Source: Patescibacteria group bacterium (GTDB lineage: Bacteria > Patescibacteriota > Patescibacteriia > JBAZBY01). From it: a stretch of 64,000 bases of DNA. The notes beneath the pieces were generated by a model. That model saw nothing but the letters and a program-made list of their open reading frames with translations. It did no database searches and was not told the origin of the DNA. Position numbers and translations under genes: made by a program. The stretch is from NCBI GenBank assembly GCA_041671225.1, contig JBAZBY010000001.1:109963-173962 (forward strand), written 5' to 3'. Below, piece after piece: positions 2,357 through 37,218 of this stretch; positions within the stretch are counted from its first letter, which is position 1; each line of letters opens with the position of its first letter.

Positions 2357-3640
2357 ATGACAACGCATCCGACCCTTGCGCTGGTAGGGAAAACGAACGT
2401 CGGAAAGTCCACCTTGGTCAACCGCATTTCAGAACAGCGCAGTGCATTCACCAGTGCCACACCGCACACAACCCGAGACCGTACACGGGTATTTTTTGTA
2501 TGGCGTGGCCTCGAGGCGATTATCTCTGATACTGCCGGCTTTAACCTCGAAGCCCATCATCCGCTGCAAAAATCCACGCGTATTTTAATTCAAAAAGCAA
2601 TGGAAACGGCAGATGTGATAGGATTTGTCGTGGACGGACGCGAGGGTATTACTGTAGAAGATCGTTCCTTTGTGAAGGAACTCCGTAAAACAAAAAAACC
2701 CGTGATCCTTATCGTGAATAAGGTTGATAATTCACGTGTAGCAATGAAATTGGATGATTCTTTGCATCGTCTTGGTTTTAAGGACGTTGCATATGTTTCT
2801 GCTGCAAATGGCAGCGGCGTTGGCGACCTATTGGATATGTTCTTTGATAAAGTAGAAACGCCGCCGGATGCTGAAAAAAAGGGAAACGAACCGCGCGTTA
2901 TTCTTGTAGGCCAAACCAACGCGGGTAAATCATCGCTCGCAAATGCCATGCTCGGCAGTGATGAAATTCTCACCAGCTCGCAGCCACATACCACGCGCGA
3001 TGCGCAGCGCCACTCACTCTCAAACAAAGGAATACGACTTGAACTTATCGATACCGCCGGCCTCTCAAGAAGTAAACAGACGGGTATTGAAGAGCTCACC
3101 CAGCGAGAAAGTCGCCTCCTTCTTCGTGACGCGCAGGTAGGCTGTCTCGTTCTTGATGCAAATGCAGAAATCACTGTGGAGGATCGCCGAATCACGCGTC
3201 TCATTGAGCAGGCGAACATTGCGCGTATGCTCATCATCAATAAAATGGATCTGATCGAAGATCGCCCCAGAAAAGAAGATAGCATACTGCGCCAACTCCC
3301 TGGCTTCCGTGGCGCACCTCACATCTGGGTCTCTGCAAAGACAGGTCGTAATGTTAAAAAGATCCTTCCGATGTTCACAGAACTCTTAGAACGATATAAC
3401 TTCATGCTGCCAGAAGAGGAACTTACAGAACTGAACAGCGAACTCTTCAACTCCACCACGTGGCAAAAACTCAAGTTTGAGTATATTGAACAAGATGCGA
3501 GTCGACCGCCAAAGTTTCGCATACGCTACAGAGGAAGAGTGTCGCCGCCAGAGGCAAAGCTCGATCATCTTTCCAAACAATTGCAAGAACGCTATAGCCT
3601 AGAAGGCGTACCCGTCATCATTACGACAAGTCGAAGATGA
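2357..3640 (+). CDS. der: Ribosome-biogenesis GTPase Der/EngA (two GTPase domains plus KH-like C-terminus)
   Basis: Two P-loops (GKTNVGKST and GQTNAGKSS) and two DTAG motifs. The tandem GTPase architecture is typical of EngA. Confidence 0.85.
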   Translation: MTTHPTLALVGKTNVGKSTLVNRISEQRSAFTSATPHTTRDRTRVFFVWRGLEAIISDTAGFNLEAHHPLQKSTRILIQKAMETADVIGFVVDGREGITVEDRSFVKELRKTKKPVILIVNKVDNSRVAMKLDDSLHRLGFKDVAYVSAANGSGVGDLLDMFFDKVETPPDAEKKGNEPRVILVGQTNAGKSSLANAMLGSDEILTSSQPHTTRDAQRHSLSNKGIRLELIDTAGLSRSKQTGIEELTQRESRLLLRDAQVGCLVLDANAEITVEDRRITRLIEQANIARMLIINKMDLIEDRPRKEDSILRQLPGFRGAPHIWVSAKTGRNVKKILPMFTELLERYNFMLPEEELTELNSELFNSTTWQKLKFEYIEQDASRPPKFRIRYRGRVSPPEAKLDHLSKQLQERYSLEGVPVIITTSRR

Positions 3641-15854: not shown

Positions 15855-16613
15855 TTATATATAAAGAATTTCACGCGCAAGACGCTCATACGCGCGCGCG
15901 CCGGATGAATTTGGTTCATAATCTGCAATGGACTTCCCATACGATGGCGCTTCGGCAAGACGAACATTTCGCGGAATCACGGAGCGGAAGATATTGTTCG
16001 GGAAATGGCGATACAATTCTTGCATCACTTCGGCAGAGAGCTTTGCGCGGCTATCATACATCGTGAGTACGGCGCCAAGTATACGAAGATTCGGCTGCAG
16101 ACCCTGCTGCACGAGCCGAATGGTCTCAAGGAGCTGTGAAAGTCCCTCCAGGGCATAATATTCCGCCTGCACGGGAATAAGCACATCATCAGCCGCGACA
16201 AGCCCGTTCAACGTTAAGAGTCCCAAGCTCGGTGGATTATCAATAATAATATAATCATAATTATTCCGCACTTCCAGAAGTGACTCGCGAAGACGATGCT
16301 CACGTTGTTCTTGATTCACGAGTTCAATCTGTGCGCCCGCGAGATCCATTGTTCCTGGAGCAATCGTGAGGCCATCGATACTCGTTTGTAATAAGACATG
16401 GGACATCTGTTTTATTCCAACGATTGCTTCATACGTTCCATGTGAAAGATCGCTCACCACATGGCCGAGTCCGCTGGTCGCATTCGCCTGCGGATCGATA
16501 TCCACGAGTAACACAAACTTCCCTTCTCGGGCGAGGTATGTTGCGAGATTGATGGCCGTGGTGGTCTTTCCAACCCCGCCCTTTTGATTGACCACAGAAA
16601 TAACACGTGCCAT
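15855..16613 (-). CDS. parA: Chromosome partitioning ATPase ParA (Soj)
   Basis: Deviant Walker A MARVISVVNQKGGVGKTTTAINLA and 252 aa length. Confidence 0.9.
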   Translation of the reverse strand: MARVISVVNQKGGVGKTTTAINLATYLAREGKFVLLVDIDPQANATSGLGHVVSDLSHGTYEAIVGIKQMSHVLLQTSIDGLTIAPGTMDLAGAQIELVNQEQREHRLRESLLEVRNNYDYIIIDNPPSLGLLTLNGLVAADDVLIPVQAEYYALEGLSQLLETIRLVQQGLQPNLRILGAVLTMYDSRAKLSAEVMQELYRHFPNNIFRSVIPRNVRLAEAPSYGKSIADYEPNSSGARAYERLAREILYI

Positions 16614-16696
16614 AGTCTGTAGAGTATAGCAAAAAGTACCCTTTGCTTACAGTTGACGTTCTATTACTTTTTCAATACACTGCTGGGGTTTCATAC

Positions 16697-16713
16697 GTGC
16701 CGGAGTGGCGGAG
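16697..16713 (+). repeat. 17-nt duplicate of the 5' end of tRNA-Leu(CAA) (CGTGCCGGAGTGGCGGA)
   Basis: Identical to 16800-16816. tRNA-like homology stops after the D-stem 5' strand and is followed by the hairpin GCCCCGCA...TGCGGGGC. Confidence 0.7.
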
Positions 16714-16801
16714 CCCCGCACTATGCAAGCAAATGCGGGGCGGGACGATGTGAGTCTCTATTTGTCCTCCGTATCACCTATCGGTGTAAAATAAACTTCG
16801 T

Positions 16802-16888
16802 GCCGGAGTGGCGGAACTGGTATACGCGCGCGACTCAAAATCGCGTTCCCTTCCGGGATTGTGGGTTCGAGTCCCTCCTCCGGCACCA
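16802..16888 (+). tRNA. tRNA-Leu (anticodon CAA), type II with long variable arm
   Basis: 87 nt: acceptor GCCGGAG/CTCCGGC, D-arm GCG-GAACTGGTATA-CGC, anticodon stem CGCGA/TCGCG with loop CTCAAAA, a long variable arm, T-loop TTCGAGT, ACCA. Confidence 0.85.
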
Positions 16889-17065
16889 TAGAAAGGTTTG
16901 GTTATCTCGAAGAGATGAACAAGCCTTCATATGACAGCAGACTCGAACGGGCAGAAGCGAGACAAGTCGCTTGCCGAAAGGCGCGGCGCAGGCGAGCGAT
17001 CGCAGAATGCGAGTAAGCGCAGCATGCTGCGCTGCCCAGGACAACGAGCCCCGCGAGATGCGGGG

Positions 17066-17083
17066 CGAGGCGAAAGTCCCTCC
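17066..17083 (+). repeat. 18-nt duplicate of the 3' end of tRNA-Leu(CAA) (GTCCCTCCTCCGGCACCA)
   Basis: Identical to 16871-16888 and preceded by the GAGCCCCGC-GAGAT-GCGGGGC hairpin; no matching 5' acceptor strand lies immediately upstream. Confidence 0.7.
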
Positions 17084-17142
17084 TCCGGCACCAACTTGAC
17101 GAAGAAAGACATCTCAGCTATCCTCTGCAAGCAACATCATGA

Positions 17143-17218
17143 CGCGGGATGGAGCAATTGGTAGCTCGCCGGGCTCATAATCCGGAGGTTGTGGGTTCGA
17201 GTCCCACTCCCGCAACCA
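17143..17218 (+). tRNA. Initiator tRNA-fMet (anticodon CAU)
   Basis: 76 nt with anticodon loop CTCATAA. The C1:A72 mismatch and A11:U24 pair are characteristic of bacterial initiator tRNA; T-arm GTGGG-TTCGAGT-CCCAC. Confidence 0.8.
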
Positions 17219-17240
17219 GGTCAATCTACATTGTCGACGT

Positions 17241-17317
17241 GCCAGGGTAGCTCAGTTGGTTAGAGCACGGGACTCATAAGCCCGGGGTCGTGGGTTCGAA
17301 TCCCACCCCTGGTACCA
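17241..17317 (+). tRNA. tRNA with CAU anticodon (elongator Met or lysidine-modified Ile2)
   Basis: 77 nt: acceptor GCCAGGG/CCCTGGT, D-loop AGTTGGTTAG, anticodon loop CTCATAA, T-arm GTGGG-TTCGAAT-CCCAC, ACCA. Confidence 0.8.
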
Positions 17318-17319
17318 GA

Positions 17320-17355
17320 AGTCAGTCCTTAAAAAAATGAGGGCTGACTTTTGGT
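17320..17355 (+). terminator. Rho-independent terminator after the tRNA cluster
   Basis: Hairpin AGTCAGTCCTT...AGGGCTGACT followed by TTTTGG. Confidence 0.6.
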
Positions 17356-17422
17356 TTCGTAGCATTCAACGCTGTCTGCTTTTATTTCTCTTTAACGCCA
17401 AAATCCGATATACTAACGAAGT

Positions 17423-36414: not shown

Positions 36415-36579
36415 GCAGTATTTTTGTAACTCTTTTCTCCTTTTAGGATATGCTTTACAACGACAATGTCAACGCTTTCATAAAACCCTTCCCTCTTGAA
36501 CTATCGGGGTGGTATGTTATTCTGTGCAAGCTGAAATAACCCTGTTCCGGGGTAGCTCAGTGGTAGAGCGGTCGGCTGT

Positions 36580-37144
36580 ACATTTCACATCACTTTGGTA
36601 TACACTTTCATGTATGCCAGAGAAACGTCGGTATCGAGATCGCGCTGAATATCTCAAGAAAGCCGTTGCAGAACGCCGTAGAAAGGTGAAAGTGATGGCG
36701 GTTGAGTATGCTGGTGGTCATTGTCAGATATGCGGATATAAGAAGACGGTTGCAGCTCTTGAGTTGCATCACCGTGACAGTAAGAAAAAGGTATTCGCAA
36801 TATCTGGTCAGGGGCTTACTCGTTCTTGGGAACGCATAAAAAAAGAAGCAGACAAATGCGTTCTTCTTTGTGCAAATTGTCATCGCGAGGTTCATGCCGG
36901 CCTAGTGCAGCTTCCATGAGTAATCATGGTCGAAAAACGAGGTGAAATGCGGGAATCCTACGTCGCGAAAGCGATATGGCAATCCGCAGCCAAGCCCTTC
37001 GCAAAAGGCGAGAGGAAGGTTCAGAGACTATCCGCAAGGAGTAGTCCCGTCACGTGACGGGCCGAAGCGCCTCGCACCCATATCCGGCAAAGCCGGATGG
37101 GTGATGATATAGTCCATCCCCTTTAGAAATATTGGGATCAGATG
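36580..37144 (+). mobile_element. Group I intron (566 nt) in the tRNA-Asn anticodon loop, carrying an HNH homing endonuclease ORF
   Basis: The R element GTTCAGAGACTA (37019-37030) and S element GATATAGTCC (37105-37114) are present. The intron follows a U, ends with G, and is inserted between anticodon positions 35 and 36. Confidence 0.7.
36614..36919 (+). CDS. HNH homing endonuclease (intron-encoded)
   Basis: ATG at 36614 inside the intron. The HNH motif is GHCQICGY...ELHHRDSKKK...CANCHREVH; the ORF-track extension upstream of this ATG runs through the tRNA 5' exon and is not coding. Confidence 0.7.
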   Translation: MPEKRRYRDRAEYLKKAVAERRRKVKVMAVEYAGGHCQICGYKKTVAALELHHRDSKKKVFAISGQGLTRSWERIKKEADKCVLLCANCHREVHAGLVQLP

Positions 37145-37189
37145 TAACCGATTGGTCGCCGGTTCGAATCCGGCCCCCGGAGCCATGAG

Positions 37190-37218
37190 AGAAATCGTCG
37201 CCAGCGCGGCGATTTTTC
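37190..37218 (+). terminator. Rho-independent terminator after tRNA-Asn
   Basis: Hairpin ATCGTCGC-CAGC-GCGGCGAT followed by TTTTT. Confidence 0.6.

Follow-up and report, generated by a model that had tools for sequence, protein, structure and literature searches.

A short folded element has entered a transfer RNA (tRNA) gene in a Patescibacteria group bacterium (contig JBAZBY010000001.1, positions 109,963 to 173,962; this stretch of 64,000 nucleotides (nt) is the window, and coordinates without a locus name refer to it). Our results suggest that the tRNA-Leu(CAA) gene of the window gained a protein-less element of about 205 nt at its T-loop and 3' end, that the element belongs to a widespread family matched to the tRNAs it accompanies, that an antisense arm guided the insertion, and that the 5' side of the gene was later duplicated and partly deleted. 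We give this reading as a whole a probability of about 0.6. The element restores the tRNA and displaces its old 3' end, and the feature is neither a tRNA-like RNA nor a simple scar.

The tRNA-Leu(CAA) gene is intact (ARAGORN; Rfam tRNA model, 54.7 bits) and is followed by two tRNA-Met(CAT) genes at 17143-17218 and 17241-17317, called by ARAGORN and Rfam. Partial copies of both its ends lie around it, as had been noticed in an earlier inspection of the letters alone (below, the sequence-only reading), and a repeat finder gave exact matches of 17/17 and 19/19 nt. The 5' copy (identical to 16799-16815) has the 17 nt first reported and includes a 3-nt leader, CGT, ahead of tRNA-Leu positions 1-14; the spacing of the two copies is 103 nt from start to start. 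The 3' copy (AGTCCCTCCTCCGGCACCA, identical to 16870-16888) does run from the T-loop (A58) to CCA, but it measures 19 nt instead of 18 and starts 186 nt past the tRNA-Leu end instead of 178; the interval originally drawn stopped at 17083 and missed the last 10 nt of this fragment. Next to both fragments stands the hairpin GCCCCGC...GCGGGGC, which occurs exactly twice in the 64 kb, at 16713-16741 and 17048-17066 (chance expectation 0.01; two matches in 0/100 shuffles), with common flanks (GA before, G.G.CGA after). The first hairpin adjoins the 5' stub directly, as described before, but the second ends 8 nt before the 3' fragment.

On the 3' side the insertion of 205 nt comprises, in order, a 19-nt replacement 3' end, a hairpin, a 9-nt arm, a 126-nt scaffold and the displaced 3' end. 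The spacer was correctly seen as dense in hairpins and free of any credible open reading frame (ORF): 16889-17075 has a predicted fold of -77.6 kcal/mol (z = -4.3; 0/200 shuffles as good), and only short overlapping ORFs of 51-77 amino acids (aa) cross it. For the whole stretch 16696-17096 the fold has z = -5.5 versus shuffles. In the scaffold, a long-range stem formed by GGGCAG (16949-16954) and CTGCCC (17032-17037) encloses hairpins; a single-stranded AGGACAACGA, the last hairpin at 17048-17066 and a tail, GAGGCGAA (17067-17074), complete it. The GC content of the scaffold is 0.67, as compared to 0.50 for the window.

A comparison with related genomes, which the sequence-only reading had proposed, yielded an empty site. 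Loci of relatives were retrieved through homologues of the ParA encoded 189 nt upstream of the region on the opposite strand. One of them, L081 (ParA 82% identical), carries a single uninterrupted tRNA-Leu(CAA), identical to that of the window save in the variable-arm loop. The sequence before this gene matches window 16653-16695, promoter included, and the sequence after it matches the window from 17094 onward, including the tRNA-Met promoter. The agreement of these flanks with the window on the outer side of each fragment identifies the two orphans as the ancestral gene's own ends, and the DNA between them as extra. The TTGACG and TACACT hexamers of the ancestral promoter are found with the same spacing before the single tRNA-Leu in L081 and before the stub in L083, another relative.

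The idea of a tRNA-Leu gene split by an insertion was thus right about the origin of the fragments, but one insertion into one gene does not account for the locus: the 3' element also occurs alone in a distant genome (L014, below), and the 5' side is best seen as a decayed tandem duplicate. We consider it extremely unlikely that the stub and the 3' fragment are exons of a second, split or intron-bearing tRNA-Leu or of a transfer-messenger RNA (tmRNA)-like molecule. The two could pair as an acceptor stem (GCCGGAG/CTCCGGC) and both lie in one transcription unit; however, tRNA positions 15-57 are missing, L014 and the loci of the scan described below have the 3' module without a 5' stub, and T-arm-like pairing next to the 3' fragment is not conserved in L014 or in a further locus, L084. 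Covariance searches, also suggested at the outset, returned nothing for the fragments or the spacer: in 16600-17400 at E <= 10 there was no Rfam or ARAGORN match beyond the three intact tRNAs, no tmRNA, and no match to the group I intron model RF00028, which does detect a true intron at 36826-37136. Nor is the tRNA-like fold that had been envisaged for the fragments rebuilt in relatives.

The same module was found at two other tRNA genes. In L014, a distant member of the Patescibacteria with tRNA-Leu(CAA) beside parA, the gene is followed by a hairpin, an arm (GACTTGAAC), an 84-nt GC-rich fold and a 17-nt copy of the tRNA from A58. The arm is the reverse complement of that gene's own T-loop region, which has A57 in place of G57. 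Since L014 carries the module alone, with no 5' stub, the 3' module is an independent element. The second locus, L084, was found via a 178-aa protein encoded downstream of the tRNA cluster. Window 16949-17074 has a counterpart there of about 93% identity (L084 968-1099), which continues at the same T-loop position into the 3' end of a tRNA-Met (AATCCCACCCCTGGTACCA) and has in front of it an arm, GGGATTCGAAC, that is the reverse complement of the Met T-loop. Homology between the window and L084 is limited to the scaffold; hairpin, spacer, arm and tRNA fragment are locus-specific. The upstream tRNA-Met of L084 is deleted to its last 8 nt, and in L084 1-960 a GC-rich (0.65) DUF5701 gene stands before the element copy and replaces the parA-tRNA cluster, which suggests a rearrangement with its break point at the element. 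We rejected this DUF5701 gene as cargo, as its homologues lie in ordinary housekeeping neighbourhoods.

The module proved to be one of many. Metagenome contigs were scanned for a T-arm, a gap of 55-85 nt and the arm sequence followed by G, a pattern that by its gap finds compact copies only, and at least 120 loci were obtained. A second copy of the tRNA 3' end (at least 12 nt) lies 67-157 nt past the arm in 47 of the 120 loci listed. The other 73, judged by eye and uncounted, mostly have the same arm-plus-scaffold layout with a decayed, shifted or contig-cut copy, and a few run into ordinary sequence. Among the matches listed, the tRNAs ahead of the element are Leu, Asp, Pro, Arg, Gly, Met and others, and the elements come from Patescibacteria and from contigs of human-gut, groundwater and soil metagenomes. 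In the common layout the tRNA is followed by a hairpin that is usually a T-run terminator and by an arm antisense to positions 53-63; 67-157 nt of scaffold and a short tail (GG.CR) then lead to the tRNA sequence once more, from C56 or A58 to its 3' end. Arms are exact over 9-20 nt and reach about 27 nt when mismatches are allowed. In the 47 listed loci with a second copy, the exact direct repeat starts at C56 or A58 and is 19 nt long in the median; the left edge is constant (positions 55-58) and the right one varies, from 12 to 64 nt, at times taking in the terminator. One subfamily is designated by GGGAGCGG...GGTCA. Arrays of at least two units in tandem behind one tRNA were seen at L160 9817-10300, at L108 280-520 and in L175; every unit closes with the tRNA 3' end, to which the units of L160 add a copy of the terminator. 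An exact 22/23-mer of the scaffold had no match in viral or metagenome contigs, a collection evidently without the window's own contig, and one subfamily, compared by BLAST with phage and plasmid records, had no meaningful counterpart among them. The hairpin-plus-tail pattern matched viral contigs 10 times, in every case at unrelated GC-rich terminators.

The arms follow the tRNAs they stand behind. The scan pattern had left position 57 and its arm partner free, and these two are complementary in 46 of the 47 listed loci. This was further supported by a covariance model blind to the arm, for which 15 scaffolds had been stripped of their arms and tRNA fragments. It detected more copies, behind tRNA-Met with T-loop TGCAAGT (arm AAGGACTTGCA), tRNA-Met with T-loop TGCAATT (arm CAGGAATTGCAC) and tRNA-Gly with T-loop TTCGATT (arm ..ATAATCGAAC), where the arms are complementary over 11, 12 and 8 nt, respectively. 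In all, six T-loop variants are matched by arms. Derivation of the arm from an antisense tRNA gene was rejected, as the arms stop opposite G53 and then have G, not the T-stem complement.

The structure of the scaffold is also conserved. For subfamily A5, which includes L014, a consensus fold of 33 pairs keeps 91.7% of the cells paired, and 21 of the 33 pairs change on both sides, compared with 10.2 +/- 2.0 in column shuffles (0/500 as high) and with 5-7 double-sided changes in a control in which partners were slid by 1-3 columns. In the subfamily of the window (with L084, L198, L141 and L157) the long-range stem GGG.CAG/CTGCCC and the joining sequences are conserved, and the hairpins stay paired via compensatory changes. 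The arm pairs with the tail and 3' fragment in predicted folds, with mismatches opposite T54/T55. No Rfam 15 family was recovered when scaffolds were searched (the window at E <= 10, 20 loci at gathering score, 15 loci at E <= 1); the returns for them were tRNAs and chance hairpin matches only. The suggestion of a tRNA-like non-coding RNA was sound in so far as the spacer is a real conserved structure, but a resemblance to a tRNA, tmRNA or any other Rfam family is not supported.

These data bear on the view that the locus is inert, that is, an integrase-borne island or prophage at the tRNA-Leu T-loop that was mostly deleted to leave fused attachment sites (attL and attR), as in a cis-mobilizable element (CIME), with incidental folding. 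A 19-nt direct repeat that begins in the T-loop and reaches the tRNA 3' end is what integration targeted to tRNA genes classically leaves behind, and to this extent the original proposal of an attachment-site duplication fits the 3' side; the tandem copies, too, resemble tandem accretion at such sites. However, the insert of about 205 nt lacks an integrase and is itself a module of conserved structure; at least 47 independent loci show the compact layout without an integrase in the vicinity, double-sided changes keep the scaffold hairpins paired, T-loop-complementary arms co-vary with the tRNA, and the scaffold GC content of 0.67 departs from the genome value of 0.50. Random deletion remnants would not have common boundaries or structure. 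We therefore regard an inert scar as quite improbable.

A more serious rival is a regulatory RNA resident on tRNA genes, whose arm would pair with the T-arm of the upstream tRNA, either in a read-through precursor or in trans. Such an RNA could control maturation, stability or use of the tRNA, or guard the tRNA gene from integrating elements, and the 3' fragment would be a relic or a competing partner of the arm. The strong covariation speaks for it, as does strand bias: of 48 elements, 40 fold better in the tRNA-sense strand than in the complementary one (Wilcoxon p = 1e-7), which fits a structure formed either by sense RNA or by sense single-stranded DNA. Near-identical scaffolds stand at different tRNAs of related genomes, as would be expected for partners of one protein, and the copies found by the arm-blind model have perfect arms with decayed 3' fragments. 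In the window, the element lies inside a Leu-Met-Met transcription unit for which the scan predicted nothing strong as a terminator ahead of the tRNA-Met genes; the sole terminator-like site flagged is a weak one at 16742-16758, upstream of the intact tRNA-Leu. Because it lies in a tRNA operon that lacks a strong predicted terminator, the window element may be transcribed and then released by tRNA-processing enzymes. Against a resident RNA, presence and absence vary between close relatives (window vs L081), tandem arrays and the sharp target duplication point to insertion, and most members stand behind a terminator with no visible promoter; among the non-Patescibacteria in particular, most have a T-run terminator hairpin between tRNA and arm and no evident promoter. 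We know of no ligand or protein partner. On balance this explanation is unlikely, though not lightly dismissed.

The element brings a replacement for tRNA positions 58-76, so that the tRNA stays intact. In the reading that we favour, the arm would choose its site through Watson-Crick pairs with the sense strand around the T-loop, after which an enzyme acting in trans would exchange strands, or nick and copy, between positions 55 and 58. More generally, the family may form a class of protein-less, base-pair-guided elements in which a scaffold, as RNA or single-stranded DNA, carries a programmable arm that reads the T-loop and T-stem of a particular tRNA gene and directs either insertion at positions 55-58, with repair of the tRNA in the same process, or a continuing interaction with the tRNA, as a natural guide system open to retargeting; we put this forward tentatively, at somewhat short of an even chance. 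Possibly, copying proceeded instead as in a short interspersed element (SINE), with the scaffold RNA transcribed as a tRNA trailer; its 3' part, bearing the tRNA 3' sequence, would anneal to a tRNA gene that has been nicked, and an enzyme provided in trans would reverse-transcribe it. From staggered nicks, the duplicated 3' end would arise as a target-site duplication of variable length. Such a retroelement would account for the fixed left edge (55-58) and variable right edge (12 to 64 nt) of the repeat, for 3' end copies that always match the local tRNA with no need of tRNA-specific cargo, and for the window and L084 having the scaffold alone in common. But no reverse transcriptase is linked, the antisense arm is not explained by the model itself, and the L014 repeat lacks CCA and runs into the gene flank, which indicates DNA and not mature tRNA as the source; for the same reason we rejected reverse transcription of mature tRNA as the origin of the 3' fragment. 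We hold a SINE-like history to be improbable.

No gene for an enzyme is linked to the elements. Downstream of the 47 listed loci there was no recurrent protein family, the neighbours being unrelated housekeeping genes; a single rve-domain protein occurs among their 53 neighbouring ORFs, and no integrase family recurs. Transposases of the DEDD (RuvC-like) type were absent from the insert, from the regions downstream of the 47 listed loci and from 10 window ORFs scanned individually. Those 10 ORFs, otherwise unassigned, had no match to any recombinase or transposase family, nor was there one among the 25 listed of 104 Pfam families matched by 63 window ORFs. A helper enzyme could nevertheless act in trans.

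Genes for tRNAs are classic landing sites of mobile DNA, and the known cases use element-encoded integrases acting on protein-bound double-stranded DNA. The islands and prophages of tyrosine integrases, and CIMEs, resemble the element in that an element-borne 3' end keeps the tRNA intact, the original end is displaced as a repeat from the T-loop, and tandem copies occur; in the window the direct repeat equals the tRNA 3' end over 19/19 nt. The window-type insert differs in being about 150-250 nt long, with no integrase or other gene (no credible ORF in the 205 nt of the window), and in having a folded module and an arm antisense to the T-loop, and the repeat of this family differs in its variable right edge. 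In the seekRNAs of IS1111/IS110 insertion sequences, a structured non-coding segment close to the element end holds, from 5' to 3', a stretch complementary to the top strand of the target and one complementary to the bottom strand, the two overlapping in the target, and natural retargeting accompanies changes in these stretches (PMC11187229). The same order is found here, with an arm against positions 53-61/63 and a 3' segment equal to 56/58-76, overlapping by 4-8 nt. Unlike seekRNA and bridge RNA systems, the tRNA element has no linked DEDD transposase, and no donor-recognition loop was identified; its bottom-strand match coincides with the flanking or duplicated tRNA 3' end and is not an internal stretch, and its repeats are of 19 nt as opposed to a 2-nt core.

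Folded recombination sites offer a further analogy. The attP(+) site of CTX phage, used by XerCD, and the integron attC site consist of two inverted segments around a loop of about 70-160 nt that form a target-mimicking duplex with a central defect, to which T54/T55 would correspond in the element. Integration of a fold of the attP(+) type would give the observed order of arm, loop and partial site followed by host site, and, as in attC, structure is kept although sequence varies. The target of the element differs, being the tRNA T-arm and not dif or attI, and no phage genome or cassette ORF is attached. IS200/IS605 elements and palindrome-associated transposable elements (PATEs) are likewise compact, strand-specific hairpin elements, whose short internal guide base-pairs to the site of cleavage or to the target, but their guides are of 4 nt and they insert without target duplication, where the tRNA element has a 19-nt repeat; moreover, PATEs have similar subterminal hairpins at both ends, the linker hairpin and last scaffold hairpin of the tRNA element are unrelated in sequence, and no TnpA or TnpB is linked. 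A TnpB/Cas12-type guide RNA, with the scaffold followed by a 19-nt guide and TTC as adjacent motif, was considered and rejected, as the occupied locus keeps an intact target that would be cut. Target-primed copying would explain both the variable right edge and the sharing of the scaffold alone between copies at different tRNAs. In tRNA-dependent phage lysogeny, a mobile element is likewise reported to disturb a host tRNA gene and to bring compensating tRNA sequence; there it is a whole phage with a complete tRNA gene, whereas in the window the last 19 nt are replaced and there is no phage (PMC10865867). We found no description of the layout in the searchable literature on tRNA-gene integration, bridge RNA/seekRNA, miniature elements, folded attP and PATEs, and one paper on candidate structured RNAs held nothing matching the element.

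The 5' side of the locus looks like a tandem duplicate of tRNA and element that was gutted by a deletion. The first hairpin and its tail-like GGGACGAT are followed by AGTCTCT..TCCTCCG..CACC..AACTT, and this sequence aligns to the tail, the 3' fragment and the start of the ancestral flank (score 14.5 vs 7.0 +/- 2.9 in shuffles, 105/5000 as high). AACTT in the decayed copy matches the ancestral downstream flank; it directly precedes CGT of the intact gene, and identity between the stub and the intact gene starts 3 nt before the tRNA, at this CGT. GA is shared at both deletion break points, a microhomology at the junction of stub and hairpin. Judged from sequence, events may have run in three steps, in an order that is our reconstruction. 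The element would have inserted at the tRNA-Leu 3' end; next, a unit of CGT leader, tRNA, element, 3' fragment and 5 nt of flank (AACTT) would have been duplicated in tandem; finally, the upstream copy would have lost everything from tRNA position 15 to just before the last hairpin, leaving at the old promoter the 17-nt stub, the first hairpin and a decayed 3' fragment. In the decayed part an insertion of 15 nt creates TGTAAAAT (16785-16792), which is extended -10-like and would serve as the extended -10 element for the surviving tRNA-Leu gene.

Several observations count against the reading that we favour. The alignment behind the 5'-side model is weak (p about 0.02) and the junction matches are of 2-5 nt; the closest relative, L083 (ParA 86%), has the same stub but, after GGCGGAA, an unrelated hairpin and then the contig end. 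The terminator ahead of the arm in most non-Patescibacteria members, with no promoter evident, argues against abundant sense RNA. Arms that are specific to their locus would mean either that the arm is copied from the target at insertion or that scaffolds are homogenised within lineages. In the three arm-blind copies the arm is perfect and the displaced 3' fragment decayed, which hints at a continuing function in place and not solely at transposition. Finally, a scan limited to compact copies brought up none that is autonomous, with its own recombinase or reverse transcriptase.

Mobile DNA at tRNA genes is already known as a kind, but there is a substantial chance that the present family is a new kind of guide-bearing element: in contrast to the known cases, a gene-less module of about 100-150 nt stands behind many tRNA genes with an arm that co-varies with the T-loop. 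If the arm guides insertion, this would be a new natural form of nucleic-acid-programmed site selection, with a partner enzyme worth finding; if the tRNA itself is what the arm acts on, these would be regulatory RNAs of a new, tRNA-linked class. The element family accounts for many 'partial tRNA' annotations and assembly breaks beside tRNA genes.

Table 1. Parts of the tRNA-Leu(CAA) locus in the window
Feature	Position	Strand	Basis
Ancestral tRNA-Leu promoter (TTGACG, 17 nt, TACACT), now before the 5' stub	16653..16681	+	promoter scan
5' stub: CGT and tRNA-Leu 1-14, the gene's original 5' end	16696..16712	+	17/17 identity; upstream flank as at the L081 tRNA-Leu
First hairpin (16713-16741) and tail GGGACGAT; probably what is left of an upstream element copy (its last hairpin and tail)	16713..16749	+	stem and flanks as 17046-17074
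Putative decayed copy of the tRNA 3' fragment (AGTCTCT..TCCTCCG..CACC), with inserted TGTAAAAT and AACTT	16753..16798	+	alignment to the downstream copy
Intact tRNA-Leu(CAA); 16870-16888, its final 19 nt, are the copy of the 3' end on the element side	16802..16888	+	ARAGORN, Rfam
Linker with long hairpin (about 16893-16927)	16889..16939	+	fold; not present at the empty site L081
Arm GACTCGAAC, reverse complement of tRNA-Leu G53-C61 (T-loop and first T-stem base)	16940..16948	+	read from sequence
Scaffold, 126 nt	16949..17074	+	fold z = -4.3; ~93% identity to L084 968-1099
Displaced original tRNA-Leu 3' end (A58 to CCA), joined to the ancestral downstream flank	17075..17093	+	19/19 identity; flank as in L081
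Promoter for the tRNA-Met genes that follow; the disturbed region ends here	17096..17124	+	promoter scan; kept in L081

The linker hairpin occupies the position at which the terminator hairpin stands in other family members, and has equivalents in L014, L084 and the metagenome loci.

Some further features of the relatives were seen; the organisms of L083 and L084 are recorded under SRR22388305 and SRR22388171. In L083 1-50 (minus strand) the stub, GCCGGAGTGGCGGAA, is followed by TTTCCGCCAGAGGCGGATCAGCC, which contains the stub's own complement, so that the gene is again broken after position 14/15, with another sequence as partner. A weak similarity of this insert to L084 755-790 was not significant. 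In L082 (ParA 71%) the tRNA-Leu(CAA) at 432-518 lies by parA on the opposite strand as compared to the window and L081, which implies a local inversion of the tRNA gene. The distant L002 has, at 3230-3350 (minus strand), a pseudo 5' half of tRNA-Leu (GCCTCGGT...ACTGGTAGACGCGC..ACTCA) about 100 nt before an intact tRNA-Leu(CAA); this half is interrupted by hairpins, and the spacer between parA and the tRNA is full of repeated CTCCCCCTTTTAGGGGGAG hairpins. The contig of L083 ends 28 nt past the 5' stub and that of L081 in the second tRNA-Met gene, both within the tRNA cluster, and the assemblies of L081, L082 and L083 all break in or beside it, which fits repeats confusing short-read assembly.

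Elsewhere in the window, at 36548-37190 (+), a tRNA-Asn(GTT) missed by ARAGORN is split in its anticodon loop (after CTGT) by the group I intron mentioned above (RF00028, 83 bits, 36826-37136), with an HNH endonuclease ORF at 36509-36919 (Pfam HNH, E = 2e-5). This split gene matches the situation described in Patescibacteria (PMC13011429).

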